Positions 45,201 to 59,660 of a stretch of DNA of 64,000 nucleotides are shown piece after piece. A program made the translations under genes and the position numbers. A model generated the notes under the pieces. It saw only the letters and a list, made by a program, of their open reading frames with translations, was not told the DNA's origin and made no database searches. Source of the DNA: Longimicrobiales bacterium (GTDB lineage: Bacteria; Gemmatimonadota; Gemmatimonadetes; Longimicrobiales; Gaopeijiaceae); the NCBI GenBank assembly GCA_965226375.1, contig CBDDCX010000007.1, positions 224,001 through 288,000 of the forward strand, in the 5' to 3' direction. The number at the start of each line of letters is the position of its first letter. Position 1 is the first letter of the stretch.

Positions 45201-45473
45201 ATAGACAAGCGGCAGGAGCAGATCGAGCACGCCGAAGGGCGTCTCGCTCGTGCCGACGGCCTGCTCATGGACATCCGAGCGGGACTCGAGTCGCTGCGCA
45301 GTCAGAAGGCCGTCGTAGACCATGTCATTTCGACGTCCGGACAGCTCACCTACGAGGCCAAGGAGGCCGAGCGGCTGCTCGTGCAGCTACGCCAGGAGCG
45401 GGACCTGACTCAGGGCATCCACGATGCACTGAGGGAGATGCGCGACGAGGACTCAGAGGCCAGGGCGGGCTAG
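42246..45473 (+). CDS. 1075-aa almost entirely coiled-coil protein
   Basis: Heptad-rich (E/Q/L/A/R) throughout. No Walker motifs or TM. GAGG RBS. Confidence 0.8.
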   Translation: MASWIKSLFGGNEELSELTELPEDLQKIFVQAKRDRKALRDLLKRSEKAQQVLQDVSAPLAAVQASAESMTLQMNELQARVDSFTDVSEQVDSVEQRAMALTESQSKASTTLDDASKRVSDLKMQVRDIRSMVDEIVTARDDLTEMAGPYGTVATLLKRVNVLREELQQMQDRGAVLKETSDKLDLVEGQITEITDSQKELADTVTRGTNSANRLEGQVTELQVQVEKVSDARAVMSELLGPNGGLSIVQKQFGKLKDELARIEGRTLDLGQLEERVSVIGRQADSVEEDQRKGLEVIQSSAHEVKDLDARVADLHEAVQSVSVARQEIAELAGPKGALAKLRTQMEEARAQFLDYGQDVARIREDQSDARSSQETILSRYEEFRTKMDAVDQGVEHATNRVASVENTMQDLTRAEELASRTERQLNALRGLSDHVSQKTTALERQREAIDRTEAQARALTDLHWELESKLKEAKTQVKEVKKVNASVESLRTLHAQVAEQSDELRAGQAKIRTEDQALRASLSGLQEEVRRSTQSYELGQANLEAIDHRITDLREGVTEFENRFRALDEASQRVSEATRRGDHLSGRLTSLSARLDQLGEQVESVAGMSEGMTRAEEAAVEAASRLERIEARQSEVQDAVRDLTTLRGSREEVINALERLRATRSEIERMQTGQLETGAWLASAQESIVELRERISQLDDLTANVDHMRRNADRVIAVAYQLEQREPSLTELDDRMSELRAIGTQLDERTSNLLAGLADADRRFEAVATRAAAADQVRDVIDEVMAAVRKAENRMEELGEGVDTAVERAEYIKSLSERVDRVAGDIAQRQQALDKAMEHLDRVATLRQEAGTVVQSLEDQLRSVTEHLAQAEEQSAKVGSRAELLEARAGSLRFAEKRIRQFEDKLADLDKVEQELDRSIDTLVARQGSIDQVRDEVQELFARAESTLKDVRAISAATDEVQTASDNLAAIRAKAEEMTEVLATIDKRQEQIEHAEGRLARADGLLMDIRAGLESLRSQKAVVDHVISTSGQLTYEAKEAERLLVQLRQERDLTQGIHDALREMRDEDSEARAG

Positions 45474-45527
45474 AGGGCCACTGAAGCGGGTACGGAGGGT
45501 CGCTTTACGCGGCCGTAAATGGCCGCG

Positions 45528-46223
45528 TTAGGCGTCCACGACGGACAGCTGGGTGGCTCGCTCCAGGGCCGCGGTCAGAGCGGCGTTGATGGCGTCCGAA
45601 GCGAAGCCGCGCCGACTCAGGAAGGCGTGCAGACGGCGTCGACCCCGTTCGCGTTCCGGAGAGCGGTCGTTTGTCGCGAGCGCTTCGGCCACCGTGGGGT
45701 TCTGACGCTCCACCCACTTCTCCGCTACCTCCACGGCGAGCCTGTGCTCCGACGTTTCTTCTTCTGAGAATGCATCTTCGATGGCCTTGTCAGCGACTTC
45801 GCCGGGCACACCCTTCTGTCTGAGCTCCTGCATCAAGCGGAATCGTCCCCGCGGACGAAGCCGGATGCGGCTCCTCGCGAAGGCCGAAGCGAAGGCCTGA
45901 TCGTCCAGGAACCCTTGCTCCCGGAGGAGGTGGATACACCACTCGACCAGGGCAGGGGGGAAGTCCTTCTTGCGAAGCCGGGTGCGGAGCTCCTGTTCGG
46001 CTCGCGGCCGATAGGAGAGGAGATGTAAAGCCGCCTGGCGAACGCGCCACTTGGTGTCGTCCTCCTTGAGGCGGACGAGATCTGTGGGCTGGATCTCGGT
46101 GCCCACATGGATCCCGGAGCGATCCATGACGTCCAGGGCGATCTCGAGCGGCTCATGACCCTCGATGTGTACCAGAACCCGGTCTCTCTTCCGCGGGGCG
46201 AGATGGATCCGGAGGATCTTCAC
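45528..46223 (-). CDS. recX: Regulatory protein RecX
   Basis: ALHLLSYRPRAEQELRTRL, GFLDDQAFA, QELRQKGV, FLSRRGF. Confidence 0.9.
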   Translation of the reverse strand: MKILRIHLAPRKRDRVLVHIEGHEPLEIALDVMDRSGIHVGTEIQPTDLVRLKEDDTKWRVRQAALHLLSYRPRAEQELRTRLRKKDFPPALVEWCIHLLREQGFLDDQAFASAFARSRIRLRPRGRFRLMQELRQKGVPGEVADKAIEDAFSEEETSEHRLAVEVAEKWVERQNPTVAEALATNDRSPERERGRRRLHAFLSRRGFASDAINAALTAALERATQLSVVDA

Positions 46224-46262
46224 ACCGTCATTGTAGAACCGTCACTGTAGAACCGTCATTGT
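46224..46262 (+). repeat. 14-bp tandem repeat x2.8
   Basis: ACCGTCATTGTAGA ACCGTCACTGTAGA ACCGTCATTGT. Confidence 0.85.
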
Positions 46263-46564
46263 CCGTACCATCCTCCGGCCACGAGGTCCCGGAAGAGAAT
46301 GATTGGACGCCCGTCTTCCAAAACGAGGGCGAAGTACTCCCTGGAGATGGGAGTGCGCCACCACTCGTCGTCGATTCTCCAGCGCTCCCGTACCGCCACC
46401 ACCCGAAACCGCTTACCGCGTCGGTGCAGTTCGGCGGGTAACCCCTCTTCGTCGGTACGCACCTGAACGGGAGAAGGGGATTTCAACGGGCGAAGCCTCT
46501 GCCGTTGAAGCCTGCTCGGTCGCCCGTTGGAGGCGTCGTTGGATGATGGAGTCGGAGGGCTCAT
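46256..46564 (-). CDS. Small ImuB-C-terminus-like protein (DUF6504-like)
   Basis: RERWRIDDEWWRTPISREYF...LFRDLVAGGWY. Confidence 0.75.
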   Translation of the reverse strand: MSPPTPSSNDASNGRPSRLQRQRLRPLKSPSPVQVRTDEEGLPAELHRRGKRFRVVAVRERWRIDDEWWRTPISREYFALVLEDGRPIILFRDLVAGGWYGQ

Positions 46565-46594
46565 CACCTTCTCGGTGTCACGGTTATTATGGAA

Positions 46595-46627
46595 ACCGAA
46601 TATAACCCGAAAGTGTGGGCGATGCAA
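46595..46627 (-). promoter_or_regulatory. Promoter with candidate operator for the DUF6504-like/recX unit
   Basis: TTGCAT-N17-TATATT on the minus strand. ACCGAATATAACCCGAA at 46595-46611. Confidence 0.7.
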
Positions 46628-46676
46628 TTCATCAATGGGATGACTTCGACCTCCCGTGGTCATCCAGCCGGCCTCT

Positions 46677-47252
46677 TTATTCCCCGGATCGTTCTTCGCC
46701 CAGCAGCCGCGCAGTCTCGACCTGGCCAAGGCGTTCGAAGAACCGGTCGCCGAACGCCCGTAGCGTCTCGTTGTCCGGAAAGGCCGAGGACGGAATGGTC
46801 AGGAAGGAGTTGGCGCCCGAGTAGATGAGGAACGCCCCGTCCGACTCCTTGATGTCCTCGATGGCGCTCCACTTCACGAGCCATTCGTAGCCGGTGGTGG
46901 AGTCCAGGATGCCATCGTCCCGCAGCTCCACGCGATGAGGCCCGAAGATACCGTTGATGAGGCCGAGCTCGGCGACCTTTTTGATCTGGCGCTTCTGCGA
47001 ATGGCGAACGAGAGGCTTCAGCGCACCGACCAGGAGCGCGCCGGTGAACGCCATGACGAGGGCCCCCACGACCGATGCGCCGCCGATGAACAGGAGCAGA
47101 CTCATGAGCCCGACGATCACGGCGAACAGGGCCTGCATCTGCGTAAGTGCCTTCTTGGTCAGCTCCGAGTTCCAGGAGTGTGTGGCGTTGGCTGTAGCCC
47201 AGTCTTCAGGTGTGAACTCGAACTCGACCGTGATTGGGCCCGACTCTGGCAA
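46677..47252 (-). CDS. YcxB-family membrane protein
   Basis: Two TMs, then VKWSAIEDIKES...LTIPSSAF. Confidence 0.75.
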   Translation of the reverse strand: MPESGPITVEFEFTPEDWATANATHSWNSELTKKALTQMQALFAVIVGLMSLLLFIGGASVVGALVMAFTGALLVGALKPLVRHSQKRQIKKVAELGLINGIFGPHRVELRDDGILDSTTGYEWLVKWSAIEDIKESDGAFLIYSGANSFLTIPSSAFPDNETLRAFGDRFFERLGQVETARLLGEERSGE

Positions 47253-47376
47253 TTCCGGCCTCCCGACGGATGTGGGCCGACTGTCATGTGCTCTTGATAC
47301 TCAATTTACATGTGGGGCGGGTGGGTTGCGATGATAACGGGGTCGCATGCTGAAGACACGGGGCGCCGCACGAGAC

Positions 47377-47404
47377 TACGTATGATCTCGTTCCGACATA
47401 CGTA
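47377..47404. repeat. 28-bp palindrome (11-6-11), related to 57362-57390
   Basis: TACGTATGATC TCGTTC CGACATACGTA. Confidence 0.6.
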
Positions 47405-47509
47405 TGCACGGAGTGAGTGATGTCTTAGCGCATCCCGCGACCCTTGCGTGTCCCGTTGCCCCTGAGCAAGGTTCGCTGGCTCTTCCGAGGGGAAAGATTA
47501 ATGAGCAAA

Positions 47510-48040
47510 GGGGGTATTCCCCGCACTCCAGCCTCCACGCCCCCGACATAGCTCTCGTCCACTTGCACAACGCCGCTCAGCTGGTCGCGATCCGGTCGGA
47601 CCATGGCCCGGCGGAGCTTGTGGAGCCAGACCCACGCTGTCTTGTAGCTTCCCAGTCCGAGCACGCGCTGGAGCCCGAGAGCATTGGCTCCGTATTTCTG
47701 GCTCGTGAGCTCCCAGGCAGCGAGAAACCACAGACGCAGGGGCGAGCGCGTGCGGTGGAACACGGTTCCCGCCAGCACCGAGGTCTGCCTTCGACAGTGT
47801 GGGCAGACGAGACGCCCCCGCGATGCTCGCCAGACCTCTCCCAACCCGCCACAGCCCACGCACACAAACCCTTCCGGCCAGCGCAGACCCTCCACGTACT
47901 CCAGGCATGCCGCATCGTCGGGGAAGAACTCGTCCAGCTCCAGCCGCGTACGGGGATAGTCCACGCCGCCACGGAGCTGAGAAGCCGGAACCGCCATGAC
48001 CACAACATGTAGTGGGCGGTGGACTTAAGGCAATACCCCA
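47510..48040 (-). mobile_element. Internally deleted copy of the IS1595 element
   Basis: Matches 17551-~18072, joined directly to the last ~12 bp of the right IR. Confidence 0.9.
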
Positions 48041-48227
48041 TATACCTCATACGTTCACGGCGCGGCGTCCGCAGATCTGGATTGTGACGGAGACATCGTC
48101 CGTTCGGTGTGAGCCGCCGCTGGCGGAATCCCGTGGCCACGCCTTCCTAACACAACTTGAAAGCACGCCCCCTGTGGGTACCGTGGAGTTGCGAAACGAC
48201 CATGGACCACAGCAGAGGGCGGCTCTC

Positions 48228-49319
48228 ATGAAGCGGAACACCAAGTATGTGGGACTCGACGTGCACCAGGCAATGACGGTGGCGACGGTTCGGGGCCAAG
48301 GGGGACGAGTGATCGCGCGCAGCGTGATCGAGACGGGGGACGCATCGATCACGGAGTTCTTCAGCGCGATGCGCGGGTCGGTGCACGTAGTGTTCGAAGA
48401 GGGAACCCAGGCGCAGTGGCTCTACGACCTACTGAGTCCTCGTGTGGATCGGGTGATCGTATGCGATCGCAGAGGCGAAAAGCGTTCGGGCAACAAGGGG
48501 GACCAGGTCGATGCCGACGAGCTGTCGGAGCGGTTGCGGTGTGGCGGGCTGCGCGCGGTATACCACGGCGCACACGGCCGATCTGATCTCAAGGAGCTGA
48601 CTCGAGCCTATCGCAACCTCGTCGAAGACGGCACGCGCGTGATGCTGCGGCTCAAGGCACTCTTCCGTGCGCGGGCGATCCGAACCACGGGCGGCGGAGT
48701 CTACCAGCCGAAGCAGCGCGGCGCCTGGCTCGCGCAGCTACCGGAGGGAGGAGCTCGTCTACGAGCCGAGACCCTGTACGCTCAGCTCGATGTGCTTCGG
48801 GCTCAGCGCAAGAAGACCAAGGCGGCCATGGTCGCCGAGGCGAAGCGTGATCCGGCCTTCGGGGTGCTCGAGACGATCCCCTACTTTGGGCCCGTGCGTA
48901 TCGCACTGTTGCTAGCAACCATGGGTACGCCGTGGCGCTTCCGCACGAAGCGCAACCTGTGGGCCTATGCCGGACTCGCCGTGGTCACGCGCTCGAGCTC
49001 CGACTACGAGTTGTTCGATGGGCGTCCTCGCCGGCGGCGGCGCCCTCCGCTCACTCGAGGGTTGAACCGCAACCACAATCGAGTCCTCAAGAATGTCTTC
49101 AAGGGCGCCGCCAACGTAGCCATTGGACGTCCGGGCCCATTCCTGGACTTCTATAACCGAATGCTCGAGCGCGGGATGCGCGAGGAGCTCGCCCGTGTGA
49201 CGCTGGCTCGCAAGCTCGCAGCGCTCACCCTTCGTCTACTCAAAACCGGAGAAGTCTTTGATCCGACGCAGCTGAGTCGACCCCAAACATTGAGGGGGGT
49301 TCATCGTCCTAGGGTGTAG
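48228..49319 (+). CDS. IS110-family DEDD recombinase/transposase
   Basis: YVGLDVH, FEEG, NKGDQVDA, YAGLAVVTRSSS, LARKL. Confidence 0.93.
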   Translation: MKRNTKYVGLDVHQAMTVATVRGQGGRVIARSVIETGDASITEFFSAMRGSVHVVFEEGTQAQWLYDLLSPRVDRVIVCDRRGEKRSGNKGDQVDADELSERLRCGGLRAVYHGAHGRSDLKELTRAYRNLVEDGTRVMLRLKALFRARAIRTTGGGVYQPKQRGAWLAQLPEGGARLRAETLYAQLDVLRAQRKKTKAAMVAEAKRDPAFGVLETIPYFGPVRIALLLATMGTPWRFRTKRNLWAYAGLAVVTRSSSDYELFDGRPRRRRRPPLTRGLNRNHNRVLKNVFKGAANVAIGRPGPFLDFYNRMLERGMREELARVTLARKLAALTLRLLKTGEVFDPTQLSRPQTLRGVHRPRV

Positions 49320-49720
49320 GGGTGCAGCGCATGACCTTCGATCCCTTGGAACGTCGAATCCCTGGACGACGGTGCGGGAGGCAGTCTCAAGCAAATCCGT
49401 ACGCCCGGCTCGCAGTCATGCCGAGGCACGATCCTAACTCCAGGCCCTTCCGCAGAACCCGAAGAAGTGTCAGGCCGGCCCCGAGGCTGAGTCTCAGATA
49501 GAACCATGGTTCGCGTCGTACGACCTAGGTCCACTCAATCAAGTCCAGACGGATCGACCATCCAAGTGAGGATCATCGTGGCCGACACGAAGACTGACTC
49601 ATCCAGCACACCACTCCCTGACGATCCGGTCATTCCAGCCAAGCGGAGGCTGAGTGCCAAGCCCAACACGGCTTCGCAGACAGCCGGGGCGGAGCCCGGC
49701 CTTGACACTCTCTTTCATAG
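49320..49720 (+). ncRNA. Putative bridge/seek RNA region of the IS110 element
   Basis: Four short segments match the two strands of the target and of the donor junction (see findings). Confidence 0.65.
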
Positions 49721-49806
49721 AACCAATTTGCGATCCTGCTGCGCCCCGAGGATGCCAGATCGCGATAGCGCTACGCGAGTTTTCCGCAGCCATCGCTGGT
49801 TAGGGC
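49721..49806 (-). repeat. attC-like hairpin site interrupted by IS110 (other end at 48144-48151)
   Basis: AACCAATTTGCGATCCTGCTGCG ... CGCAGCCATCGCTGGTTAGGGC imperfect inverted repeat. Confidence 0.65.
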
Positions 49807-49836
49807 GTAGACTCACGGGTCTGCGGTCGTGCTGGC

Positions 49837-50358
49837 TCAGGGCTCGTTACTGACTAGGAGGTCCGGCGCCGACGCATTTGATCCCGACTGCAGCTCCAAA
49901 GGGTTTCGCTTCGCCAGCGAAACGGTTGCGGCTGCCAACCCCGCGGTAACGGCCCCGTAGGAGGCAGCACCCGCAACAAGGGCAGTCAGCTGCAAGGCGA
50001 TAGGGATAGGGAGACCCAGTATACCTTCGGCCATCCTGACCGCGTCCGACAGGCTTGCGACCGCGATCGTACCCACTAGGGCCACGGCAGCCCCCACGAC
50101 GAAGCCCCACAATGCGGCTCGGTGGGCCGTCAAGTCATCGAGGGTTCGCCGTCCTTCCATCACTGACAGAAGACCGCCGAAACCCACACCGAGGACAAGC
50201 CCAGCGACCCCTGCTACGACACCGAGGCCCAGAGCCGAACTCAAGAACGAAGTCGTGGAGATCAAACCCCCGAGTGCCGTGCCAACGGCGCCAAGGGCGA
50301 TACCCCAGATGGTCCCGATCCCCAGGGCAGCTTTCAACTTCCTTGTCAGGTTTCCCAC
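49837..50358 (-). CDS. Hypothetical membrane protein (putative cassette gene)
   Basis: Gly/Ala-rich multi-TM protein with a GGGAG RBS. Confidence 0.65.
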   Translation of the reverse strand: MGNLTRKLKAALGIGTIWGIALGAVGTALGGLISTTSFLSSALGLGVVAGVAGLVLGVGFGGLLSVMEGRRTLDDLTAHRAALWGFVVGAAVALVGTIAVASLSDAVRMAEGILGLPIPIALQLTALVAGAASYGAVTAGLAAATVSLAKRNPLELQSGSNASAPDLLVSNEP

Positions 50359-50421
50359 TGCTTCTCCCTACCGGCTAGCCTCTTCTACGCCCTAGCTAGT
50401 CGTTGTACTACGAAAACTCAT

Positions 50422-50586
50422 GTCCTATGACGCGCTCACTGACTCACGACGCGGAGGTGGCGTAGCCACCGGAATGTCCGCGAAGCGGCCGAGCCGTTGC
50501 TCATCGTAAGATCCAAGCTGCCGTAGCGCGACATGCGCGGAGGGGCACTTCGGCGGAGGTGGTGGTGAGTACCGGCCTCATCCGAC
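50422..50586 (-). repeat. Degenerate attC-like site
   Basis: GTCCTATGACGCGCTCACTGACTCACGACGCGGAG resembles GTCCGATAACGGGCTCACGCGCTCCCGCGCGGAG. Core triplets are mutated. Confidence 0.45.
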
Positions 50587-50660
50587 GGCGCAAGTTGCGT
50601 CCATTGGCGCCGACATCAAGGCGGCCTTGTCATAAAACAGATATCTGCCTATTAATTATC

Positions 50661-51026
50661 ATGCGTCGAAAACCGGGTGAGCTCATTCCGCTGGAAATAG
50701 AGATCCTTGAAGCCGCTGTGGCTCTCCAGCGGGAAGGCATCCCGGCCTTCCACGGTTATTCGCTCGCAAAGAGCATGAAGACCGACTCCGATCGCCGGAT
50801 GCTCACGGCCCACGGAACCCTATACCGCGCGCTTCATCGATTGCAGCGCGCAGATTTGCTCGAGGGGTTCTGGGAGGATCCTGTTGAGGCGGAGCAAGAA
50901 AGCCGCCCGCGCCGTCGTCTGTATCGGCTCACAGCGTTAGCGGTGGTCGCGCTCAGCCGCGCCCGAGCGCGGCAGCGCGCCAGCGGCGAACTACCTTCGC
51001 TAGAAGGTGGGCTGGAGGTTCCATGA
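50661..51026 (+). CDS. PadR-family transcriptional regulator
   Basis: FHGYSLAK, HGTLYRALHRL, RPRRRLYRLT. Confidence 0.88.
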   Translation: MRRKPGELIPLEIEILEAAVALQREGIPAFHGYSLAKSMKTDSDRRMLTAHGTLYRALHRLQRADLLEGFWEDPVEAEQESRPRRRLYRLTALAVVALSRARARQRASGELPSLEGGLEVP

Positions 51027-51739
51027 GCGCAGCCCGGCGGATCGCCGTGAACGTCGCACGCACCTGGGTGCATCTCTACACGAGCCGTATGCCGACGGAG
51101 TTGCGCGTGACCAGGCGCGCGGAGATCGATGCCGACCTTTGGGACCACGAGAAGGATGCGGAAGAAGGGGGTGTACCCCCGCTGGTCACTGCGCTGGAGA
51201 TCTTCCTGCGAACCTGTCTCGGCGTCCTGGACGACTTGAGCTGGCGTTTCGAAGCCCGTCAACCGGGAGTTGGCGCTTCACGAAAAGGAAGGAGTACCAT
51301 GATGGACTTCTCAGCAAGACAAACACGGTGGATGGGGATTCTCTCAGTCGCCGGCGGTGCGATCGTGATGCTGATGCTCGTGGTGATTCCTACCCTCCAG
51401 TCGTACTTCGCTTCGGCCGGAATTCCGCTGCCGCTCCCGACCCGCATCGTCATCGGTAGGTCCGCGTTCCTGACGGGCTATTGGTGGGCCTGCGTCGCGG
51501 GGATCGTCGCCTTTTCCCTGGCCGTTAGACAGCTCGACAAGATTCTGCGGGACACGATGCTCACCAGGGTCGCCGCCTTCTACGACGACGAGGTGGACAG
51601 CGCGGTGGAGGCGCTGCTCACGAAGATGGAGCCGATCATGATCGTCGGGCTGGGCGTTGTAGTGGGTGGACTGATTATGGCCATGTACTTACCGATGTTC
51701 GATGTTGGTCAACGCGGTGAAGTAAGACGTTGCTATTGA
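51023..51739 (+). CDS. PadR-partner membrane protein fused to type II secretion F/PilC-derived segments
   Basis: N-terminal WVHLYT...RRAEIDADLWDH. C-terminal LPLPTRIVI and FYDDEVDSAVEALLTKMEPIMIV...MYLPMF. Confidence 0.65.
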   Translation: MSAARRIAVNVARTWVHLYTSRMPTELRVTRRAEIDADLWDHEKDAEEGGVPPLVTALEIFLRTCLGVLDDLSWRFEARQPGVGASRKGRSTMMDFSARQTRWMGILSVAGGAIVMLMLVVIPTLQSYFASAGIPLPLPTRIVIGRSAFLTGYWWACVAGIVAFSLAVRQLDKILRDTMLTRVAAFYDDEVDSAVEALLTKMEPIMIVGLGVVVGGLIMAMYLPMFDVGQRGEVRRCY

Positions 51740-51882
51740 CAGAGTTTCGGCACGATAACGAAGAACCTACCCGGCCAGCACGGAACCGTGCGAAGCAGTT
51801 GCGGGGAATCCTGGGCCAAATGGCGCCCGATGTCCTTAGTGGAGAGGCGCGAGATTGAGGACGACGCGGCGAGGTCTCTTAC

Positions 51883-52386
51883 CTAGGGACACGCGTCTAT
51901 CAGCGCGAGGAAGTCCCCTCGGAGTGAGTTGATCGTAGTCCGCCACATCTCCGGAATCTCGATCTCGCGACCCCGGCAGGCCAATCCGTGGTAGGTGTCC
52001 CATTCGGCGTCCCCCAGCACACCTATCTGATGCTGAACGTAGGCGTTCTCCATGTTCCGCCAGAACACCCGCCGCACGTTGAAGTATTGGAGCTGATCGA
52101 GGCCGCTTAATCGCTCTCGGAGCGAGTCGTTGCTGGCCCTGTACATGATCAGAGAGAGATCGGGGTCTGTCCCGATCACAAGCAAATACTCGTTAGATGC
52201 CCGAATCATCTCTTGGTACGTCGCCGCTCGAGAAGCGGCGGTGTTCTGGCGGATTTCGAGGCCGACGAAGACAAGGGAGACAATCACTGCGATGCCGCCG
52301 AAGACCTCGGTCAACGACGTTAGTCTCGAAGGTGCTTTTGCCAAGCCGGCCTCCTCTGGCTTCTTCGTGGGACGGCGAAAGCCCAT
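51883..52386 (-). CDS. Hypothetical protein (putative cassette gene)
   Basis: ATG directly follows GTTATCGGAC. IAVIVSLVFVGLEIRQNT membrane anchor. Confidence 0.65.
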   Translation of the reverse strand: MGFRRPTKKPEEAGLAKAPSRLTSLTEVFGGIAVIVSLVFVGLEIRQNTAASRAATYQEMIRASNEYLLVIGTDPDLSLIMYRASNDSLRERLSGLDQLQYFNVRRVFWRNMENAYVQHQIGVLGDAEWDTYHGLACRGREIEIPEMWRTTINSLRGDFLALIDACP

Positions 52387-52540
52387 GTCCGATAACGGGC
52401 TCACGCGCTCCCGCGCGGAGTGAGCGTCGGCGAACGGAGTGCCCCGAAGGGACGGGCCCGTTGGTCTCCACGATAGTGTCACAACAGGTAATGCGCGAAG
52501 GCGCGCCGAAGGGTCCGGCGGGAGAGCAGCGTTAACCGAC
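52387..52540 (-). repeat. attC-like site (long form)
   Basis: GATAACGGGCTCACGCGCTCCCGCGCGGA ... TCCGGCGGGAGAGCAGCGTTAACC. Confidence 0.75.
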
Positions 52541-52557
52541 GTACCGACCTAGCGTTC

Positions 52558-52785
52558 TCAGACGTGTCCGAACATTTGCTCGAAGAGTTCACGTGAACGC
52601 TGCAACCCTTCTTCGGTGAGGGCGACAGATTTCCTCTTCGAAATCGGATCTCCAATCATCCCTTTCTCATGGAGACGGTTTAGAGCCTCCCAGTCGAACC
52701 CCTGCCAGGAACGGATTCCGTCATGCAGCGTCAGCCACATCAAAGCCAGAACGGCCTCGTCGACTTTTGTCTCGTCGAATTCCAT
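52558..52785 (-). CDS. DUF6429-like small protein (putative cassette gene)
   Basis: KVDEAVLALMWL...WQGFDWEALNRLHEKG...KSVALTEEG. Confidence 0.75.
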   Translation of the reverse strand: MEFDETKVDEAVLALMWLTLHDGIRSWQGFDWEALNRLHEKGMIGDPISKRKSVALTEEGLQRSRELFEQMFGHV

Positions 52786-52821
52786 AAAGTGCCATCCATG
52801 AACTCACTGTTCATCCAGTAT

Positions 52822-52871
52822 GTCGTCTAACGGGCTCACGCGCTCCCGCGCGGAGAGCGGCGTTACGCGAC
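52822..52871 (-). repeat. attC-like site (short form)
   Basis: GTCTAACGGGCTCACGCGCTCCCGCGCGGAGAGCGGCGTTACGC. 28 bp are identical to 52393-52420. Confidence 0.75.
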
Positions 52872-52886
52872 GCGCGTACGCGCAAA

Positions 52887-53141
52887 CTATCGATACACGT
52901 CTCGGCGGTGGCCAATCTTCACGACGATGACGACCTGGGCGTCATCGTCGACTTCGTACAAGACACGATGGGATCCCTGGCGTACCCGATACCGAGATCC
53001 ACTCGTAAGCTTCTCACAGCCACGAGGCCGGGGGTCCTCGGCCAGAGCATGGATGCGCTCAACGACCCGGCCGCGATCCGCTTCCTGGAGAGCTTTCAGT
53101 TCTTTGACGGCAGAGGGCTTGATCTGGAGATCATAGCTCAC
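52887..53141 (-). CDS. RelE/ParE-family toxin
   Basis: DPRPRGCEKL, YRVRQGSHRVLYEV, KIGHRRDVYR. Confidence 0.92.
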   Translation of the reverse strand: MSYDLQIKPSAVKELKALQEADRGRVVERIHALAEDPRPRGCEKLTSGSRYRVRQGSHRVLYEVDDDAQVVIVVKIGHRRDVYR

Positions 53142-53364
53142 CGCTCTGCCTCATCTCCTGCAGCACATCGGAGAAGGAGAGGCTTGGCTCGTTCGCGCGT
53201 GCCTCAAACGCCTCGAGATCCTCTGCGTCTTCAGAGAGAATCCCGAGGACTGCCTCGTTCACGAGGTCGGATACACTTTGCTCCGTCTCGGCGGCTTTGA
53301 GTCGCAAGGCTCGATGTACTGAAGGAGAGAAGTAGACCGTCGTTCGCTTTGTTTTCGTGCTCAT
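53131..53364 (-). CDS. CopG/RHH antitoxin
   Basis: KRTTVYF...ALRLKAA...SVSDLVNEAV with an acidic C-terminus. Overlaps the toxin start. Confidence 0.85.
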   Translation of the reverse strand: MSTKTKRTTVYFSPSVHRALRLKAAETEQSVSDLVNEAVLGILSEDAEDLEAFEARANEPSLSFSDVLQEMRQSGEL

Positions 53365-53415
53365 GCTGCCACTATAGCGTTATAGCGCCACAACGTCCAG
53401 ACGTTTTTCTAGCGT

Positions 53416-53567
53416 GTCGCGTAACGGCCCCACTCCCGACACCCTTGTCTCAAAGCAGGCATTCAGCGCCCGTATTGCGACGTATGTCGGTATGGCCTTA
53501 TGTGCGACGTGGGGAATTCCGCACCGCACCGTCCAACTCCCCAGCCTCGGGAGGGGCGCGCTCAGAC
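53416..53567 (-). repeat. Integrase-proximal att-like site
   Basis: GTCGCGTAACGGCCCCACTCCCGA ... TCGGGAGGGGC. The first 10 bp are the exact reverse complement of 52862-52871. Confidence 0.6.
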
Positions 53568-53613
53568 TAGGCACATTACCAACGATCCGCCACCCGCCAC
53601 ACACAACTCCCGC

Positions 53614-54537
53614 CTACTCCTCGTCCTTCTCCTCAGGGCCCCCGAACAGCGTATCCGCAGGACTGATCACCTTTACCAGAGCTTGGTTCGCCACATGCGT
53701 GTAGATCTCGGTGGTCGCCGACTTGGCGTGTCCCAACAGCTGTTGGATGTAGCGTTGTTGCGTCCCACTCTCAACGAGGTGCGTTGCGAACGAGTGCCGC
53801 AGTATGTGTGGAGTGACCGTCCTCCGGATTCTGGCTCGCTCAGCGGCCTTCTTCACAACGCGTTGGAGGCTCCGAGCGTTGTAGTGCCGATCGGGCCTTT
53901 CTCCTGGAAACAGCCATTTGTCCAGACGCTCAGTCCGCGCGTAGTCCCTGAGAGCTTCGAGGGTCACGGCGGAGAGCATCACATACCGGTCCTTCCGCCC
54001 TTTTCCCTTTCGCACTCTGATCATGCCACGGTCGGACTCGATGTCAGTGACCTGGAGGCGGATCACTTCGCCGACGCGTAGACCGCCGGAGTAGAGCACC
54101 AGCAGCATCGCTCGGTGCTTCAAGTTGGTGACGGCGTCGATGAGGCGCCGAACCTCGTCGCGGCTCAGGACCTTCGGCAACGATTTGTCTCGTCGCGGCC
54201 GAGGCAGCTCGAGCTTGGCGACCCCTCTACGCAGCACCTTCGAATGCAGAAACTTGAGCGCGCTCACCGCCTGATTCACGTAACTATACGAGCAGCCCTC
54301 ACGCATCAGACGCAGCAGCCACGAACGCATTTCCTCGGTCGTGGCGTTGGGGTCAGCGCTCGTCCGTCCCAGATAGAAGCGTTTGACGTGTGATCCGTAC
54401 AGCCGGCGTGTCTGTCGGGAGAAGCCGCGAAGTCGCATTTCCTCGTCCATGCGATCGAGTTGGTCTCCCAGCCACTCGGGTGCGTCGCCAGTCTCGGTCC
54501 TTTTTCGGTCGCGGCCCGTCCCTCGTCTCTTCGCCAT
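53614..54537 (-). CDS. IntI-like tyrosine recombinase without the integron-specific insertion
   Basis: SAM-like N-terminus (MRLRGFSRQT..Y, NQAVSALKFL), LPKVLS, GLRVGE, GKGRKDR, HILRHSFATHL, LLGH, IYTHV. Confidence 0.9.
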   Translation of the reverse strand: MAKRRGTGRDRKRTETGDAPEWLGDQLDRMDEEMRLRGFSRQTRRLYGSHVKRFYLGRTSADPNATTEEMRSWLLRLMREGCSYSYVNQAVSALKFLHSKVLRRGVAKLELPRPRRDKSLPKVLSRDEVRRLIDAVTNLKHRAMLLVLYSGGLRVGEVIRLQVTDIESDRGMIRVRKGKGRKDRYVMLSAVTLEALRDYARTERLDKWLFPGERPDRHYNARSLQRVVKKAAERARIRRTVTPHILRHSFATHLVESGTQQRYIQQLLGHAKSATTEIYTHVANQALVKVISPADTLFGGPEEKDEE

Positions 54538-54719
54538 CACGGACGCTCCCACCGGGGGCAGGGCGATGCCATGGCTCTTTCGGCGGGCGTACGGGCCGGA
54601 CACGGCGATACGCCCCGAACCGGACGCGGCCAATCCCCAATGACGGCTTCCGCGATAACCGAGCCTACTATACAATTAGTTGACACTCGACGGATCCGCC
54701 GTCTGCTTCAGGAAGCCCA

Positions 54720-56438
54720 ATGCTCATTGGACTGATCGCCGTGCTCTTGACCCTGGGGTCCTTGACGGCCCCGGGACACGCTGACCGGGCAACCCTCGCT
54801 GCGGGGGATTTGCAGGGCGAGATCCACGATCTCGTCGCCCAAGGAGATCTGGAGGCCGTCCGGGATCTACTGACCGAGGACCCCACACTACTCGAGTCGA
54901 GAGATGGCCTCGGCCACACCCCGCTCCATACGGCGGCGATCGAGGAGAACCCGGCGATCGTGCGCTTCCTGCTCGAGGCGGGGGCGGAGGTGGATGCCCG
55001 GAATGATCGCCAGCGCACGGCCATCTGGTTGGCCGCGTGGCAAAACGACGGGGTAGAGGTCGTCTCCCTCTTGCTGGCTCACGGGGCAGATATCGAGGCC
55101 GTTGGTTTCCTGGGCCAAACGCCTCTGTCGGCGGCCATCGTGGGTCGAAGGCATGTGGTCGTCGATGTGCTTCTCGACCAAGGGGCCTCACTTCCAACCG
55201 AAACGGGCCCCCGGATCGAACTCATGTATCGCGCAGTTACGCACGGCAACCTCCGGGTGTTCGAACGGATGTTCGAGGTCCTTCCAACCCTCGATCCCGC
55301 GAGCGAAGAGGCGGCCGACTTACTTTGGGGTGCGGCCGAGGGTGGCTCGGGGGCGATCATGGAACGCCTTCTCGCGACCGGCATCGACCCCGACTCGCCG
55401 GATGCCTACCAAGATCGGCCCATTCATACCACGAGTCAGAGCGGGTTCACCGAGGCGACCCTGGCGCTGATCGGGCGGGGAGCCGACCTGAACCGGCGAA
55501 ACCTGACGGGTGACTCTCCCTACAACCTCGCGGTGGCGTACGAACACACCGAACTAGCCGCACGGCTGACGGAGTTGGGAGCGGATTCGGGTCCCCCTGA
55601 GCCTCCCGTTTTACAAGGCGACTATCTGGGCGAAACGCTTCCGGGCGGGGAGCCCGTGGTGTTTGCTCCGGGCATTGTCTCGAGGGAGGGTTCACAGAGC
55701 GTTCACGCGACGACCGTCTTTTCTCGGGACGGTTCAGAGGTGTACTGGTCGGACGCTTGGCAGGCCCCGATCTCATATATGAAGCGGGTGGATGGTCGCT
55801 GGACGATGCCGGCCCATGTCCCGTTCACGACCGGATACATCGACGACATTCCGATGTTCTCCCCGGATGAGAAGCGACTGTATTTCCTGTCGTCCATGCC
55901 GATCGACGGCGGCGAGGCCAGTAATCGCGAATACCTCTGGTACGTCGAGCGGGAGAGCCCGGAGGACCCGTGGTCCGAGCCCATTCCCGGGCCCGCCGCG
56001 ATCAACGCGGTCCCCCTCCATTGGCAGTTCGCGATCGCGCCCAACGGAGATTTCTACCTACCGGCCGCGACCGTAGGAGGGCAGGGCAGGGACATTCATG
56101 TCTCCCGGTTGGTGGACGGCGAATACCAGAGTGTGGAGCGAATCGAAGGCCCGCTGAACACATCGGGCGATGAGCACATGCCGTTCATCGCGCCGGACGA
56201 GAGTTATATGCTGTTCGCCGCCCGGAATCGCCCCGGCACGGACGAACACTTCCGGCTCTACGTCAGCTTCCGGGGGTCGGACGGTTCGTTCCAGGAGCCG
56301 GAGCTCCTTCCTGAACGTATCACCGGAGGATGGGACCAGATCTGTCCGGTGGTGACTCCCGATGGCCGGTACCTCTTCTACATCTCAGGGAATGACGTTC
56401 GCTGGGTGAGTACGGAGTTCGTCGAGGGCCTTCGTTGA
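54720..56438 (+). CDS. Exported ankyrin-repeat protein with C-terminal PD40/TolB-like propeller
   Basis: Signal peptide, GHTPLHTAA-type repeats, FAPGIVS, FSPDEKRLYF, VTPDGRYLFY. Confidence 0.85.
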   Translation: MLIGLIAVLLTLGSLTAPGHADRATLAAGDLQGEIHDLVAQGDLEAVRDLLTEDPTLLESRDGLGHTPLHTAAIEENPAIVRFLLEAGAEVDARNDRQRTAIWLAAWQNDGVEVVSLLLAHGADIEAVGFLGQTPLSAAIVGRRHVVVDVLLDQGASLPTETGPRIELMYRAVTHGNLRVFERMFEVLPTLDPASEEAADLLWGAAEGGSGAIMERLLATGIDPDSPDAYQDRPIHTTSQSGFTEATLALIGRGADLNRRNLTGDSPYNLAVAYEHTELAARLTELGADSGPPEPPVLQGDYLGETLPGGEPVVFAPGIVSREGSQSVHATTVFSRDGSEVYWSDAWQAPISYMKRVDGRWTMPAHVPFTTGYIDDIPMFSPDEKRLYFLSSMPIDGGEASNREYLWYVERESPEDPWSEPIPGPAAINAVPLHWQFAIAPNGDFYLPAATVGGQGRDIHVSRLVDGEYQSVERIEGPLNTSGDEHMPFIAPDESYMLFAARNRPGTDEHFRLYVSFRGSDGSFQEPELLPERITGGWDQICPVVTPDGRYLFYISGNDVRWVSTEFVEGLR

Positions 56439-56472
56439 TCGGTGGAAACGGCCAGGGCCGAATCGGACCTAG

Positions 56473-56895
56473 CTAATCCCCCCAGGGATTGAGAACAGGC
56501 ACGCCCCGGTCAGCGTAGTCGCCAGCGTTGCGGGTGACCAACGTCAGGTCATGTACCTGGGCGGTGGCCAGCATGAGCCCGTCCACCACGGGCAGTTCTC
56601 TCCCGACGCGCCTTCCCTGGGCAGCCAAGCGGCCCCACGCGAGAGCCACGGCGTCATCGACGGCGAGCACGCGTCCCCGGAATCGTGGGCCCAGGTCCTG
56701 CTCCAGCCACTCCGTGAGCACTTCCTTGCGGCGCCCGGGGGCCATGAGCGCCACGCCGTTCGCAATCTCTCCCAACACGAGGACACTGATGGCGAGGTCC
56801 AGGGGGGTGTGATCTCGGAGCCACTCCACCACGCGCGGGTGCGGGGCCGGGCGCGCCGGCTCTGAGAGCACGTTGGTGTCCAGCAGATATCGCAC
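56473..56895 (-). CDS. VapC PIN-domain toxin
   Basis: YLLDTNVLSE, DGLMLATA, LVTRN. Confidence 0.92.
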   Translation of the reverse strand: MRYLLDTNVLSEPARPAPHPRVVEWLRDHTPLDLAISVLVLGEIANGVALMAPGRRKEVLTEWLEQDLGPRFRGRVLAVDDAVALAWGRLAAQGRRVGRELPVVDGLMLATAQVHDLTLVTRNAGDYADRGVPVLNPWGD

Positions 56896-56952
56896 AGTAG
56901 AGTCCTGAGTTGGGAGTCCGGCGTGCCACCGAGGGCGCCTAAGCACCGCCCT

Positions 56953-57210
56953 CTAAAGCGACACGTCCCGTCCGACGTCTCGGGACCGCTCCAGAACCAG
57001 GGTGCCATCCGCCATCGCTTCTGCGAGAGGAGATGCCTTCAGGAAGGAGACCAGGTCGCCCGGCTCGGCCAACTTCTCGTATTCCTCCGCGCTGAGAATC
57101 ACGACGGCCTTACGGCCGTGGCGGGTCACGAGCTGCGGGCCCTCAGAGCGAGCGCGGCGGACCAGCTCGCTGAACCGATTCTTGGCATCTTCGAGTTTCC
57201 ATCTCGTCAT
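56953..57210 (-). CDS. Phd/YefM antitoxin
   Basis: WKLEDAKNRFSELV, GPQLVTRHG. Confidence 0.92.
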   Translation of the reverse strand: MTRWKLEDAKNRFSELVRRARSEGPQLVTRHGRKAVVILSAEEYEKLAEPGDLVSFLKASPLAEAMADGTLVLERSRDVGRDVSL

Positions 57211-57361
57211 CGCGTCCTCATCTAGTCACTTTGGCCTGATCTGAGTCTGGCTAGTCTAGCTAGATGTGTCAATGGTGGCAGTGGCGTCGCTACAAGTTCG
57301 CCTCGATCGCGGGCGGGAGAATGCCCTGACGGGACCCAGAATATCAGACGCACGATTTCTC

Positions 57362-57390
57362 TACGTATGTTTGGAATCGAAACATACGTA
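57362..57390. repeat. 29-bp perfect-arm palindrome (11-7-11)
   Basis: TACGTATGTTT GGAATCG AAACATACGTA. Confidence 0.65.
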
Positions 57391-57421
57391 CGTCTCCGAA
57401 GGACTTGATCGCCCGGTACCG

Positions 57422-58768
57422 TCACGGCTCAAAGTTCAACAGCGCATGCCTCCGTTCGGGGATCCGCGACCAGGGGTCCACCTCTACGACCCGGTAGAGT
57501 GGGGAGTAGCCGAGCTTCAGCTTGAGCTCCTGCACGGCCTCTCTGAGGGCCGAGGGAACGATACCCTCCGACAGCTCCCGTCCGCCCTCTTCTCGGCTGC
57601 TGGATTCTGCTCGGTCGAAGAGATCGTTCTGGGACGTGGCGGGACCGAACTGGAAGAACTCGACGGTGAGGGCTTCCACGGCACGGGGGGGAGGAGACAG
57701 GGCCATCCGAGTCCGCAGGACGAACGCGATTCGCTCGCGATGTGCCGTGGACTCCCGAAGAACCGTTTCCATGGACCACGAGCCTCCACCCTCGAGGCGA
57801 GCCGCCAAGCCGACCCCTTGTATGCTCCGGCCCTGACGCTCCGGACGGGCCAGCGCCCGTTCCAGAAGACGGTCCAGAGCACCGTGGAGCGTCTGCACCT
57901 GACCCACGGGAGTATGGAAGTCCAGGGAAGAGCGGATCGGTTGGGGGCGATGATTCGGTTGTACGGGATCGATGCGTTCGCCGGTGGCCCATTCCCGAGC
58001 CTTTCGTCCGTCCGACCCGAACTGGCCGACGAGGGCTGGGGTCGGGAGACGGATCAGGTCGTCCAACGTGTCGACACCGAGTCGTTCGAGCCGCTCGATC
58101 ACCATCGTATCCACGGGGAGCACGGAGACGGGGCAGGGGCCCAGGAAGGAGAGGAGCTCTTCGTCTCTCACGATCACGGGCTGTCCGGGCCCCGCTCCGG
58201 CCGCGGCCACCCAGGCTCCGAATTTGCCAGGAGCCCATCCCATTCTCATGGCGGCCACCAGTGGGCGAGGGAAGATGGTGAGGAGGGCTCCGAGGACTCT
58301 GTCGACCTGGCGAGGTGGTGAGCCATAGAGTCGTCCGAGTCCGTCCATCCCCACGAAGACCCTTCCGCGGCCGGCCGGCTCCACGATGGGGCTCAGGTTC
58401 GACAGTGTCTCGAGAAGCTCTTCCTGGGCCGCGTCGTAGTGGGCCGGGTCTGGTTCCAGGAGGGTGAGGGAGGGACAGAGGGCGACGGCCTGGGAGATGA
58501 GTTGTCCGGGGCGTACGCCTGCGATGGAGGCTCGCTCCGAGACCTGCCAGACCGTTCTCCGGGTGTTTTCGCCGGGGGAGAGGAGGGCTACGGACGTGGT
58601 GTCCAGCTCCGGGGTTCGAACCAGCTCCAGCCGAAGCTCGAAGGTGGGTAGCCAGGCACAGAGGGCTTGGCGGCTTCCTCGGCGGGTGGTGGTGGTGCCC
58701 CTGGTCTCCCACCCGCGAACGGCCGGATGGGTGGGACCACTATACACACGAGAACGGGGCTCTGACAT
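57422..58768 (-). CDS. imuB: ImuB-like inactive Y-family polymerase
   Basis: GVRPGQLISQAVALCP, SPIVEP, LERLGVDTLDDL and C-terminal PWSRIPERR. Catalytic DxD/DE motifs are absent. Confidence 0.8.
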   Translation of the reverse strand: MSEPRSRVYSGPTHPAVRGWETRGTTTTRRGSRQALCAWLPTFELRLELVRTPELDTTSVALLSPGENTRRTVWQVSERASIAGVRPGQLISQAVALCPSLTLLEPDPAHYDAAQEELLETLSNLSPIVEPAGRGRVFVGMDGLGRLYGSPPRQVDRVLGALLTIFPRPLVAAMRMGWAPGKFGAWVAAAGAGPGQPVIVRDEELLSFLGPCPVSVLPVDTMVIERLERLGVDTLDDLIRLPTPALVGQFGSDGRKAREWATGERIDPVQPNHRPQPIRSSLDFHTPVGQVQTLHGALDRLLERALARPERQGRSIQGVGLAARLEGGGSWSMETVLRESTAHRERIAFVLRTRMALSPPPRAVEALTVEFFQFGPATSQNDLFDRAESSSREEGGRELSEGIVPSALREAVQELKLKLGYSPLYRVVEVDPWSRIPERRHALLNFEP

Positions 58769-58791
58769 GGACAAAACGGCCTTGAGCGGAT

Positions 58792-58808
58792 ACCGAATAA
58801 AAACCGAA
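58792..58808 (-). promoter_or_regulatory. Candidate operator upstream of imuB
   Basis: ACCGAATAAAAACCGAA, about 24 bp upstream of the start codon. Confidence 0.65.
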
Positions 58809-58886
58809 AGTCCAAAGTACTTCGAAGAGAAAAGAAGAGCAAGCAGATCTCGATGTGGTTGGATGGATTCCGTGAAGATTCGCGAG

Positions 58887-59660
58887 CTACTCGCCGCTCG
58901 AACCGCCTTCGTCTTGCCCCGGATCGAGCGCCGCGGGCTCGGATCCACCCTCCTCCAGAGCTTTTTCCGCCGTCCGCGACGCCTCGTCCATGATGGCTCC
59001 CAACTTCCGACGGAATGCGACGCTCGTGCGGCTCCAGATCGTCCGAGCTACGATGAACGCGCTTCCGAGCGTGCTTCCGAAGATTCCAGCGACCCCAAGC
59101 GCGGTGGTAGGCTCAATGACCTTGGCAACGAGGATCAACGAGCCTAAAAGGGCGGCGAAGGTTGGGATGAAGTACGTGAGCGCATATGCGGTCCTCCGGT
59201 CTCCCAGCACCTCGATGGTCGTGCCCGTGTCACGGGCGCTGACGTTCACGAAGATCTGGCTCGGCTCTTCTATGGTTTGCCACTCCAAGGAGTCGAGAAC
59301 GTGCTCGGTTTTTCCTTGATGGCCCGCCGCCCGGCGGATCGCCTGTAGTATCCGGCTCTGAGCCTCTTCGGAAACCTTCCCGGGGAGCGTCCGCTCATGA
59401 CGATACCTGGCCGGCCCGCCGAAGAAGGCGACAAGCCTGTCGTGACTTTGCTCCGGTAGGCCGGCGGCGGCCCGTGCGACGGCCGTCGGATCGATTCCCG
59501 CCTCTCCGGCGATCTGCTGGATCTCGGACAGAGACAACCCGCCGCCGGGCCGTGCATCCCCCACCTCGCTGATCTCCGAGGCCCTTCGGAGGATCAACGC
59601 GAACTCCTCATCGGAGTAGCGGCGTCCTCCCTCGTCGTCCCCGCTCATGAAATTCTCCAT
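58887..59660 (-). CDS. Hypothetical membrane protein
   Basis: RRYSDEEFALIL...LSEIQQIAGEAGIDP N-terminus and two C-terminal TMs. Confidence 0.65.
   Translation of the reverse strand: MENFMSGDDEGGRRYSDEEFALILRRASEISEVGDARPGGGLSLSEIQQIAGEAGIDPTAVARAAAGLPEQSHDRLVAFFGGPARYRHERTLPGKVSEEAQSRILQAIRRAAGHQGKTEHVLDSLEWQTIEEPSQIFVNVSARDTGTTIEVLGDRRTAYALTYFIPTFAALLGSLILVAKVIEPTTALGVAGIFGSTLGSAFIVARTIWSRTSVAFRRKLGAIMDEASRTAEKALEEGGSEPAALDPGQDEGGSSGE

Follow-up and report, generated by a model that had tools for sequence, protein, structure and literature searches.

An integron-like gene-cassette array headed by a tyrosine recombinase without the I2 insertion in a Longimicrobiales bacterium

Can a recombinase that lacks the I2 helix head a gene-cassette array of the integron kind, and if so, is it the enzyme that serves that array? 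This question is raised by positions 49721–54537 of a 64,000-nucleotide stretch of DNA from a Longimicrobiales bacterium (assembly GCA_965226375.1, contig CBDDCX010000007.1, positions 224,001–288,000), here called the window; the host genome, G000, comprises 4.2 Mb and is 90% complete. The I2 helix is seen as the innovation behind integron integrases and serves detection software as their defining feature (PMC7790495, PMC4889954); it docks the extrahelical bases of the folded sites (PMC7790495, PMC3053210). A first-pass annotation, made from the sequence alone, had proposed a distinct integron-like system linked to an insertion-less recombinase. This proposal held up, as relatives of the recombinase head non-canonical arrays, mostly in genomes without a canonical IntI match. 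The locus is genuine: a gene-cassette platform on the integron plan, with an I2-less recombinase and bulge-less hairpins. The annotation overlooked a canonical IntI elsewhere in the genome, the canonical type of the last site, and both features that discriminate the two systems, namely the absence of a bulged base in the L'' box and an A·C mismatch at position 10 of the cassette ends.

The recombinase gene, delimited by open reading frame (ORF) calling and characterized by profiles, alignment and a tree, occupies positions 53614–54537 on the minus strand and encodes an IntI-like tyrosine recombinase of 307 residues with the domains PF13495 and PF00589. Profile searches placed it below the cut-offs of its nearest families: 206 bits against 265 for the integrase profile TIGR02249, split over two stretches; 219.4 against 220 for the XerA-like NF040815; 185 against 330 for XerD; and 178 against 335 for XerC. 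As the annotation had claimed, the IntI-specific insertion is missing, and the motif DYARTERLDKWLFPGERPDRHY it quoted is present in the ORF. Residues 178–240 of VchIntIA (PDB 2a3v) stand opposite only 19 residues, where the alignment breaks, so that the enzyme is short of about 40 residues including I2 relative to canonical IntI. Accordingly, the spacing from the KDR to the HxLRH motif is 59 residues, against 100 in the canonical IntI of the same genome, and ranges from 58 to 66 in the short relatives in which both motifs were located. Among the VchIntIA residues listed as holding the extrahelical bases (K209, Y210, W219; P232, H240, H241; PMC3053210), the first three fall inside the stretch that is mostly absent, and only H241 faces a His, which does not belong to the family consensus. 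The catalytic residues R154, K179, H244, R247, H270 and Y279 are all intact and invariant across 24 aligned proteins, and the C-terminus ends in the IntI-like SP-D motif. Thus, the recombinase lacks the I2 insertion, scores under the TIGR02249 cut-off and lies outside the IntI clade, yet keeps the full catalytic set. It follows that IntegronFinder would not call it an integrase, because of that tool's two-profile rule.

Structural comparison agreed with the alignment. The AlphaFold model (mean predicted local distance difference test score of 85.6) has no extra helix at residues 203–221, and the top structures retrieved by Foldseek were 4a8e, 5hxy and 2a3v, the best profile and structure matches being archaeal XerA. 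In a quick tree of 75 rows, the 23 IntI rows formed a clade with support of 100, and the window recombinase fell outside it, grouping with the short enzymes of kin genomes with support of 89. Next to this kin group lie one associated with IS91 and one of Bacteroidota; the quick tree does not settle the deep branching order and, with two outgroup rows, does not separate an original absence of I2 from its later loss. Two further Xer-like genes are present in the host genome.

The sites were compared by applying one detector, with a bulged and an unbulged L-box model, alike to canonical and short-enzyme loci, the boxes R'', L'', L', R', UCS (unpaired central spacer) and EHB (extrahelical bases) being named as in PMC5027507. 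Twenty IntI loci of the host's family, drawn from 24 matches outside G000, served as canonical controls; ten of them yielded sites, and eight of the other ten had less than 800 nt of downstream sequence. All 51 sites found lay downstream and on the same strand as IntI, and 49 of the 49 distinct ones fit a bulge at position 4 of L'' and a GTT-side spacer of 8–9 nt. The annotation had held a downstream array on the same strand to be unlike integrons, which these 51 sites contradict, and it had likewise read the longer GTT-side arm as a distinction; that arm is real in the full-length site of the window (10 vs 5 nt), but it sets nothing apart, for the canonical kin sites show 8–9 nt. Co-orientation and the longer arm are therefore lineage traits, because canonical integrons of the same family have both; the co-oriented layout is known as the 'inverted integron-integrase' (PMC4889954).

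The short-enzyme loci gave a different picture of the L box. In a first set of 13 loci including the window, six carried sites, and of these 27 sites 25 fit the unbulged model, two were ties and none was bulged, with GTT-side spacers of 7–10 nt; all 27 lay in 106 kb of downstream sequence, against none in 68 kb upstream. As a gauge of chance occurrence, scanning both strands of G000, 8.45 Mb in all, with the same detector returned 31 sites. Thirteen later loci, collected after the rule had been fixed, yielded 40 distinct sites (37 unbulged, two ties, one bulged), arranged in arrays of 20, 7, 4 and 11 sites in the four loci with long flanks and with none in 52 kb upstream; seven of the nine later loci without sites had less than 1.7 kb of downstream sequence, and the other two showed no site over 3 and 6 kb. 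Bulge mapping placed a bulge in the AAC arm of 47/49 canonical sites and none there in 25/27 short-type sites. Within a site, L'' and L' pair on average at 6.6 of 7 positions, against 3.9 when L'' is set against L' boxes across loci, a figure to be read with the detector's own selection of at least 6, and the two boxes covary across 40–150 nt of variable sequence. The feature separating the two systems is thus the site itself: a bulged L'' base is present in canonical arrays and, with few exceptions, absent from the short-enzyme arrays of kin genomes. A single bulge in the GTT arm was also considered as a general trait, being present in 23 of the 27 sites of the first set; it was mostly absent from the later loci and was dropped. 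Outside the host's family, three sites from Pseudoalteromonas agreed with the bulged model, their spacer being 5 nt long, and the detector found no site at a class 1 locus, which hence has no control value.

Cassette ends provided a second line of evidence. The bases behind GTTA fit the R'' of the next site better than that of their own site in 41 of 50 adjacent pairs (32/36 in canonical arrays), as shuffled circular cassettes require. Short-type cassette ends pair to about position 14–16, giving an outer stem of about 14 bp or more, with positions 11–13 paired in 91–93%. On the gene strand, 40 of 45 short-type cassettes from seven loci have A·C at position 10, corresponding to T·G on the bottom strand, and wobbles of the T·G kind are known to favor the attC bottom strand (PMC5027507). 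Canonical cassettes are Watson–Crick paired at this position in 88% and A·C in 0/34, their pairing fading after position 11. A test of cassette ends that uses no hairpin model found A·C in 39/40 cassettes of the same class, 8/12 from distant genomes and 21/23 from metagenomes, against 0/27 canonical ones and 0/2 in each upstream control. Both intact cassettes of the window carry the mark. A loose scan for cassette ends was too noisy and was not used. Reading the sites as classical attC in reverse was rejected, given that it is at the integrase end that the unpaired half-site occurs, and that the A·C marker keeps one and the same polarity.

We consider it likely that the short enzyme is the cognate integrase of these arrays and that it uses one exchange to recombine bottom strands, in their folded form, with the attI-like site. 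The observed basis comprises its position at the head of the array, the unpaired GTT behind its stop codon, the covarying cassette ends, the paired R and L boxes and a site geometry that tracks the enzyme type; from these we infer the strand used, the number of exchanges and present activity. In the proposed mechanism, the recombinase would act at G|TT on a folded single (bottom) strand and a double-stranded attI-like site, and a single strand exchange would be followed by resolution through replication, as in integrons. Strand choice and the block of a second exchange may come from the asymmetric central spacer (5 nt vs 7–10), to which the longer outer stem and its fixed T·G wobble, available to the bottom strand alone, would add. 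Spacer asymmetry and wobble might in this way stand in for the I2 helix and the docked L'' bulge. These observations point to a matched second enzyme-and-site design for gene capture.

Might the short enzyme be cognate, yet act as an ordinary Xer/Cre recombinase, with double-stranded L'–R' sites, two exchanges and the hairpins as a by-product of dyad symmetry? It has no I2, to which a block on the second exchange is attributed (PMC7790495), and the XerA matches described above would suit this mode; so would the conservation of GTT-side spacers within an array family, and the fixed A and C could be half-site-specific contacts. In the window itself, 5 of 7 bases are common to the attI-like and attC spacers. 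Against this stand the other arrays: in six of seven, the 7 nt before GTT in the attI-like site share only 0–3 bases with the attC spacers, and such unlike spacers argue against a homology-dependent double exchange. Moreover, arrays mix site families with different spacers, and the L''/L' covariation spans 40–150 nt of variable sequence. We regard the Xer/Cre mode as unlikely.

Another explanation looks to the canonical IntI of the host genome, located at G000:C4:70278-71219 and scoring 308.6 bits, over the TIGR02249 cut-off. An attI-like GTTAGGC lies downstream of it on the same strand, no array was found beside it by detector or family-model searches, and five canonical-type attC sites are scattered elsewhere in G000, several near IS110 copies or fragments. 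The window array could then be an orphan cassette cluster served in trans, with the short recombinase as a mere neighbor. Such service would suit the canonical-type cassette inside the array, the occurrence of family A sites (the family of most window sites) far from any integrase, and their presence in a related genome, G001, where the query used retrieved no short enzyme; IntI1, too, efficiently recombines some attC sites after deletion of the extrahelical bases (PMC5027507). The annotation had named ordinary attC sites served by a canonical IntI elsewhere as its own refutation: the canonical IntI does exist, but the array sites, apart from the last, do not show the bulged geometry of canonical attC. 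The distribution of the enzymes speaks against service in trans. Co-occurrence, assessed in ten individually checked genomes and a search of the host's family, showed that seven of the ten genomes in which a short enzyme heads such sites have no canonical IntI match over the TIGR02249 cut-off (G040, G050, G058, G060, G076, G176 and G233; 92–97% complete), and three have both (G000, G002 and G268). Both systems occur in G002, where each goes with its own type of site; the short enzyme there carries an internal deletion. In seven of the ten arrays, the window included, an unpaired GTT that has a cognate partner follows the short-enzyme stop codon by 64–230 nt, and all 49 distinct sites beside the family's canonical enzymes are bulged. 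Service in trans is accordingly improbable. That the recombinase is a resolvase of the IS91-associated kind, with cassette-like units gathered beside it by other means, is very improbable: same-length relatives, 41–45% identical, do precede Y2_Tnp/Zn_Tnp_IS91 genes, and one such transposase-linked locus carries canonical attC sites, but tblastn found no IS91-type transposase within 1.5 kb of the window recombinase, which is followed instead by a leader and cassettes, is placed by the quick tree in a group distinct from that of these relatives (either with support of 89) and belongs to a clade behind which arrays recur in ten genomes.

Some of the points raised for these alternatives also weigh against a cognate enzyme working by single exchange, above all the like spacers of the window, the canonical IntI and the canonical-type cassette, which make cross-talk possible, the tolerance of IntI1 for extrahelical-base loss, and the close relatives adjoining IS91-type transposases. 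Further points on the same side concern sampling and consistency. Six of the 16 short-enzyme loci with at least 2.5 kb of downstream sequence gave no downstream site; distant relatives are less clean, with 15 unbulged and 7 bulged of 22 sites, and 25, 7 and 4 ties of 36; and in G025 two sites, ambiguous or bulged, lie upstream and on the opposite strand. The A·C counts are not independent, as kin or near-identical cassettes inflate them and one array contributes 16 of the 45, and the bottom strand is the more stable one in only 33/45 cassettes. In four metagenome runs from four studies, cassette order is unchanged on the contigs and no joint appears at the att sites, although metagenome contigs break in repeats and drop rare variants. 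The only clean joint in these runs is a 601-nt deletion (50705-51307) in the PadR pair, present in two of the four.

Within the window, the ORFs of the first-pass annotation were all found in place: an RHH antitoxin and a ParE toxin, DUF6429, two hypothetical genes and an inverted PadR pair. Behind the recombinase runs a conserved leader (53415-53613, minus strand), recognized by its sequence and its homologs, which puts 188 nt between the stop codon and an unpaired GTT site. It ends in an attI-like dyad (53415-53441) that has no hairpin partner; the annotation had called an inverted repeat at 53416, of which only the GTT half exists, and crossover would fall at G|TT, 53425/53424. A sigma-70 scan gave no promoter in the leader, one site inside the toxin–antitoxin (TA) cassette and one in the recombinase gene. 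Homologous leaders head an integrase-free array at G000:C8:65031-65200 and one locus in G001.

Cassette 1 (52832-53424, minus strand), defined by its ends and domains, encodes the RHH antitoxin (53131-53364) and the ParE-family toxin (52887-53141). The self-complementarity reported for its ends, 10/10, was reproduced and reaches 13/14 when extended, with A·C at position 10. It is followed by site s1 (52821-52872, minus strand; 45.9 bits), which the annotation had listed among its inverted repeats, at 52822; it is a short member of att family A, a 52-nt internal-deletion form of the s2 type. The second cassette carries the DUF6429 gene (52558-52785, minus strand), assigned by domain scan and cassette ends, the latter matching at 8/10 as first noted and at 11/14 when extended, again with A·C at position 10. 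Folding and the family model delimit site s2 (52386-52541, minus strand) as a full-length member of family A, in the order TAAC, 5 nt, unbulged L stem, long terminal region, L', 10 nt and GTTA. A compensatory C-G/A-T pair backs this register and is absent from the alternative one; for the L stem, the short 5/2 register was discarded, with 71% paired and no compensatory change, against 88% and one. The gene of cassette 3 (51883-52386, minus strand; 167 aa, no family match in ORF and domain scans) starts with an ATG directly behind the GTT box, at 52386, as the annotation had stated.

A family-model search between this third gene and the PadR pair found no downstream site of its own for cassette 3, so that the PadR pair, read by the annotation as a cassette, is no more than a putative one. 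The pair (50661-51739, plus strand; domain scans) consists of PadR and a partner with a T2SSF-like C-terminus; residues 177–228 of the partner (51023-51739) resemble T2SSF/PilC, an odd fusion. Site s4 (50421-50567, minus strand; 85.9 bits) belongs to family A and is degenerate as the annotation had it, the TAAC-L'' arm being lost and R' reading GTCA for GTTA. As s1 and s4 were in the training set of the family A model, their scores are not independent tests. Sites s1, s2 and s4 form one family, with ten members in G000, eight in G001 and 13 in G002, and the family A model had no match in the ten canonical IntI loci searched. An Rfam scan of 44000-58000 returned nothing relevant (a single match, E 0.7).

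The last cassette (49799-50396, minus strand) is of canonical type by sequence, has no confident family, carries a gene at 49837-50358 (173 aa) and begins about 35 nt behind s4, its own ends agreeing at 11/12 bases. Its site s5 (49721-49809, minus strand), which the annotation had counted as one more of the same kind, is a different, canonical-type attC with a bulged G in L'' and a 9-nt spacer; it is the best, though weak, match of the canonical attC model in 14 kb (15.9 bits, E 0.021). That model, R1, matched only s5 in the window and was blank on the class 1 and Pseudoalteromonas loci, so it is lineage-biased. The GTT of s5 is the end of an IS110-family element (48146-49723, plus strand; NF033542 profile) inserted at its R', and GTTA resumes beyond the element at 48151 on the minus strand; G000 holds four more full copies. 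The canonical-type cassette probably entered the array at a secondary site, to judge from its own matching ends and its start behind s4. In this genome the array is hybrid and partly decayed, with s5 of canonical type and struck by IS110 and s4 without its left arm. Beyond it lie a 523-nt IS1595-derived element (47519-48041), which interrupts the unit after IS110 and has about 42 further near-identical copies in the genome, and a YcxB-like gene (46677-47252) of putative cassette status. On the other side, 56473-58948 holds a Phd/PIN toxin–antitoxin pair and an IMS-family (ImuB-like) gene.

Related elements occur elsewhere. The last 16–17 bases of the leader, together with the GTT box, recur at G000:C8:483780-483800 and G000:C5:107650-107676; similar dispersed attI-like sites exist in G001 and G002 (loci L216-L219). 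They lie at or shortly after the stop codons of ordinary chromosomal genes, with solo cassettes and no integrase, and both G000 positions have orthologous positions without the motif in G001 and G002. The integrase-free array with the same leader, also of family A, extends over G000:C8:57289-65200 and is broken up by insertion sequences, and G000:C6:226546-231040 holds a C-terminal fragment of a second short recombinase and, on the opposite strand, three unbulged sites of another family. In G176, locus L225 shows many cassettes of about 190 nt between near-identical sites, some 2.9–12.6 kb behind the recombinase; these cassettes are possibly gene-less or encode small RNAs or peptides. G011 carries units of a short recombinase and an IS91-type transposase in seven copies, one of which (L100) has canonical attC sites behind it, along with the same IS110 family.

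How does this platform relate to known systems? It shares with the canonical integrons of IntI1 and VchIntIA an integrase, an attI-like site, cassettes in tandem whose cores read GTT/AAC and whose ends are self-complementary, R and L boxes separated on the AAC side by a 5-nt spacer, a variable terminal region, a TA cassette and the PF13495 and PF00589 domains, and with those of the host's family the co-orientation of array and integrase. It differs from them in that I2 is gone, the L'' base is not bulged (s5 excepted), the outer stem of about 14 bp or more bears A·C/T·G at position 10, and the recombinase lies outside the IntI clade. With XerA, XerC and XerD (PDB 4a8e, 5hxy) it shares an equally long catalytic domain and its top hidden Markov model, sequence and fold scores; unlike them, it scores under the XerC/XerD cut-offs, heads arrays of hairpin cassettes and ends in SP-D. 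Cury et al. (2016) described four tyrosine recombinases without intI_Cterm near attC, placed between IntI and Xer and accompanied, under the canonical model, by fewer than three attC sites, and considered them 'not IntI' (PMC4889954); compared with that published description, the present arrays differ in reaching up to 20 non-canonical sites within 14 kb. The attC-targeting IS110/IS1111 elements ISKpn4 and ISPst6 (PMC11187229) likewise have an IS110-family element at one end of a canonical-type attC, a likeness that holds at the level of the IS110 family, subgroup left aside, and accounts for site 49721 only. A literature search that left most subscription journals and supplements outside its reach found no paper describing such an I2-less system. 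The system appears integron-like in its working, yet lies outside the tests that define IntI and canonical attC, and we place it as a variant rather than a member of the integrons.

In summary, an intact I2-less enzyme with matched sites brings the origin of I2 within reach of a test that takes a single gene and three short sites, with the canonical IntI and canonical attC of the same genome as ready controls; missing intermediates have been named as a limit on studies of integrase origin (PMC7790495, PMC4889954). The position-10 A·C together with the unbulged L box provides a simple, polarity-aware detector of cassette pools that present surveys would enter as orphan clusters or overlook. Tentatively, and as a possibility we rate somewhat below even, the arrays may belong to a widespread second class of integrons with I2-less single-strand capture and a site code of its own (unbulged L, asymmetric spacer, long stem with bottom-strand T·G), able to coexist with canonical integrons in one genome while keeping largely separate cassette pools, and maybe representing a state before I2. 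If that state is truly pre-I2, single-strand cassette capture would predate the very insertion that is thought to have created it.

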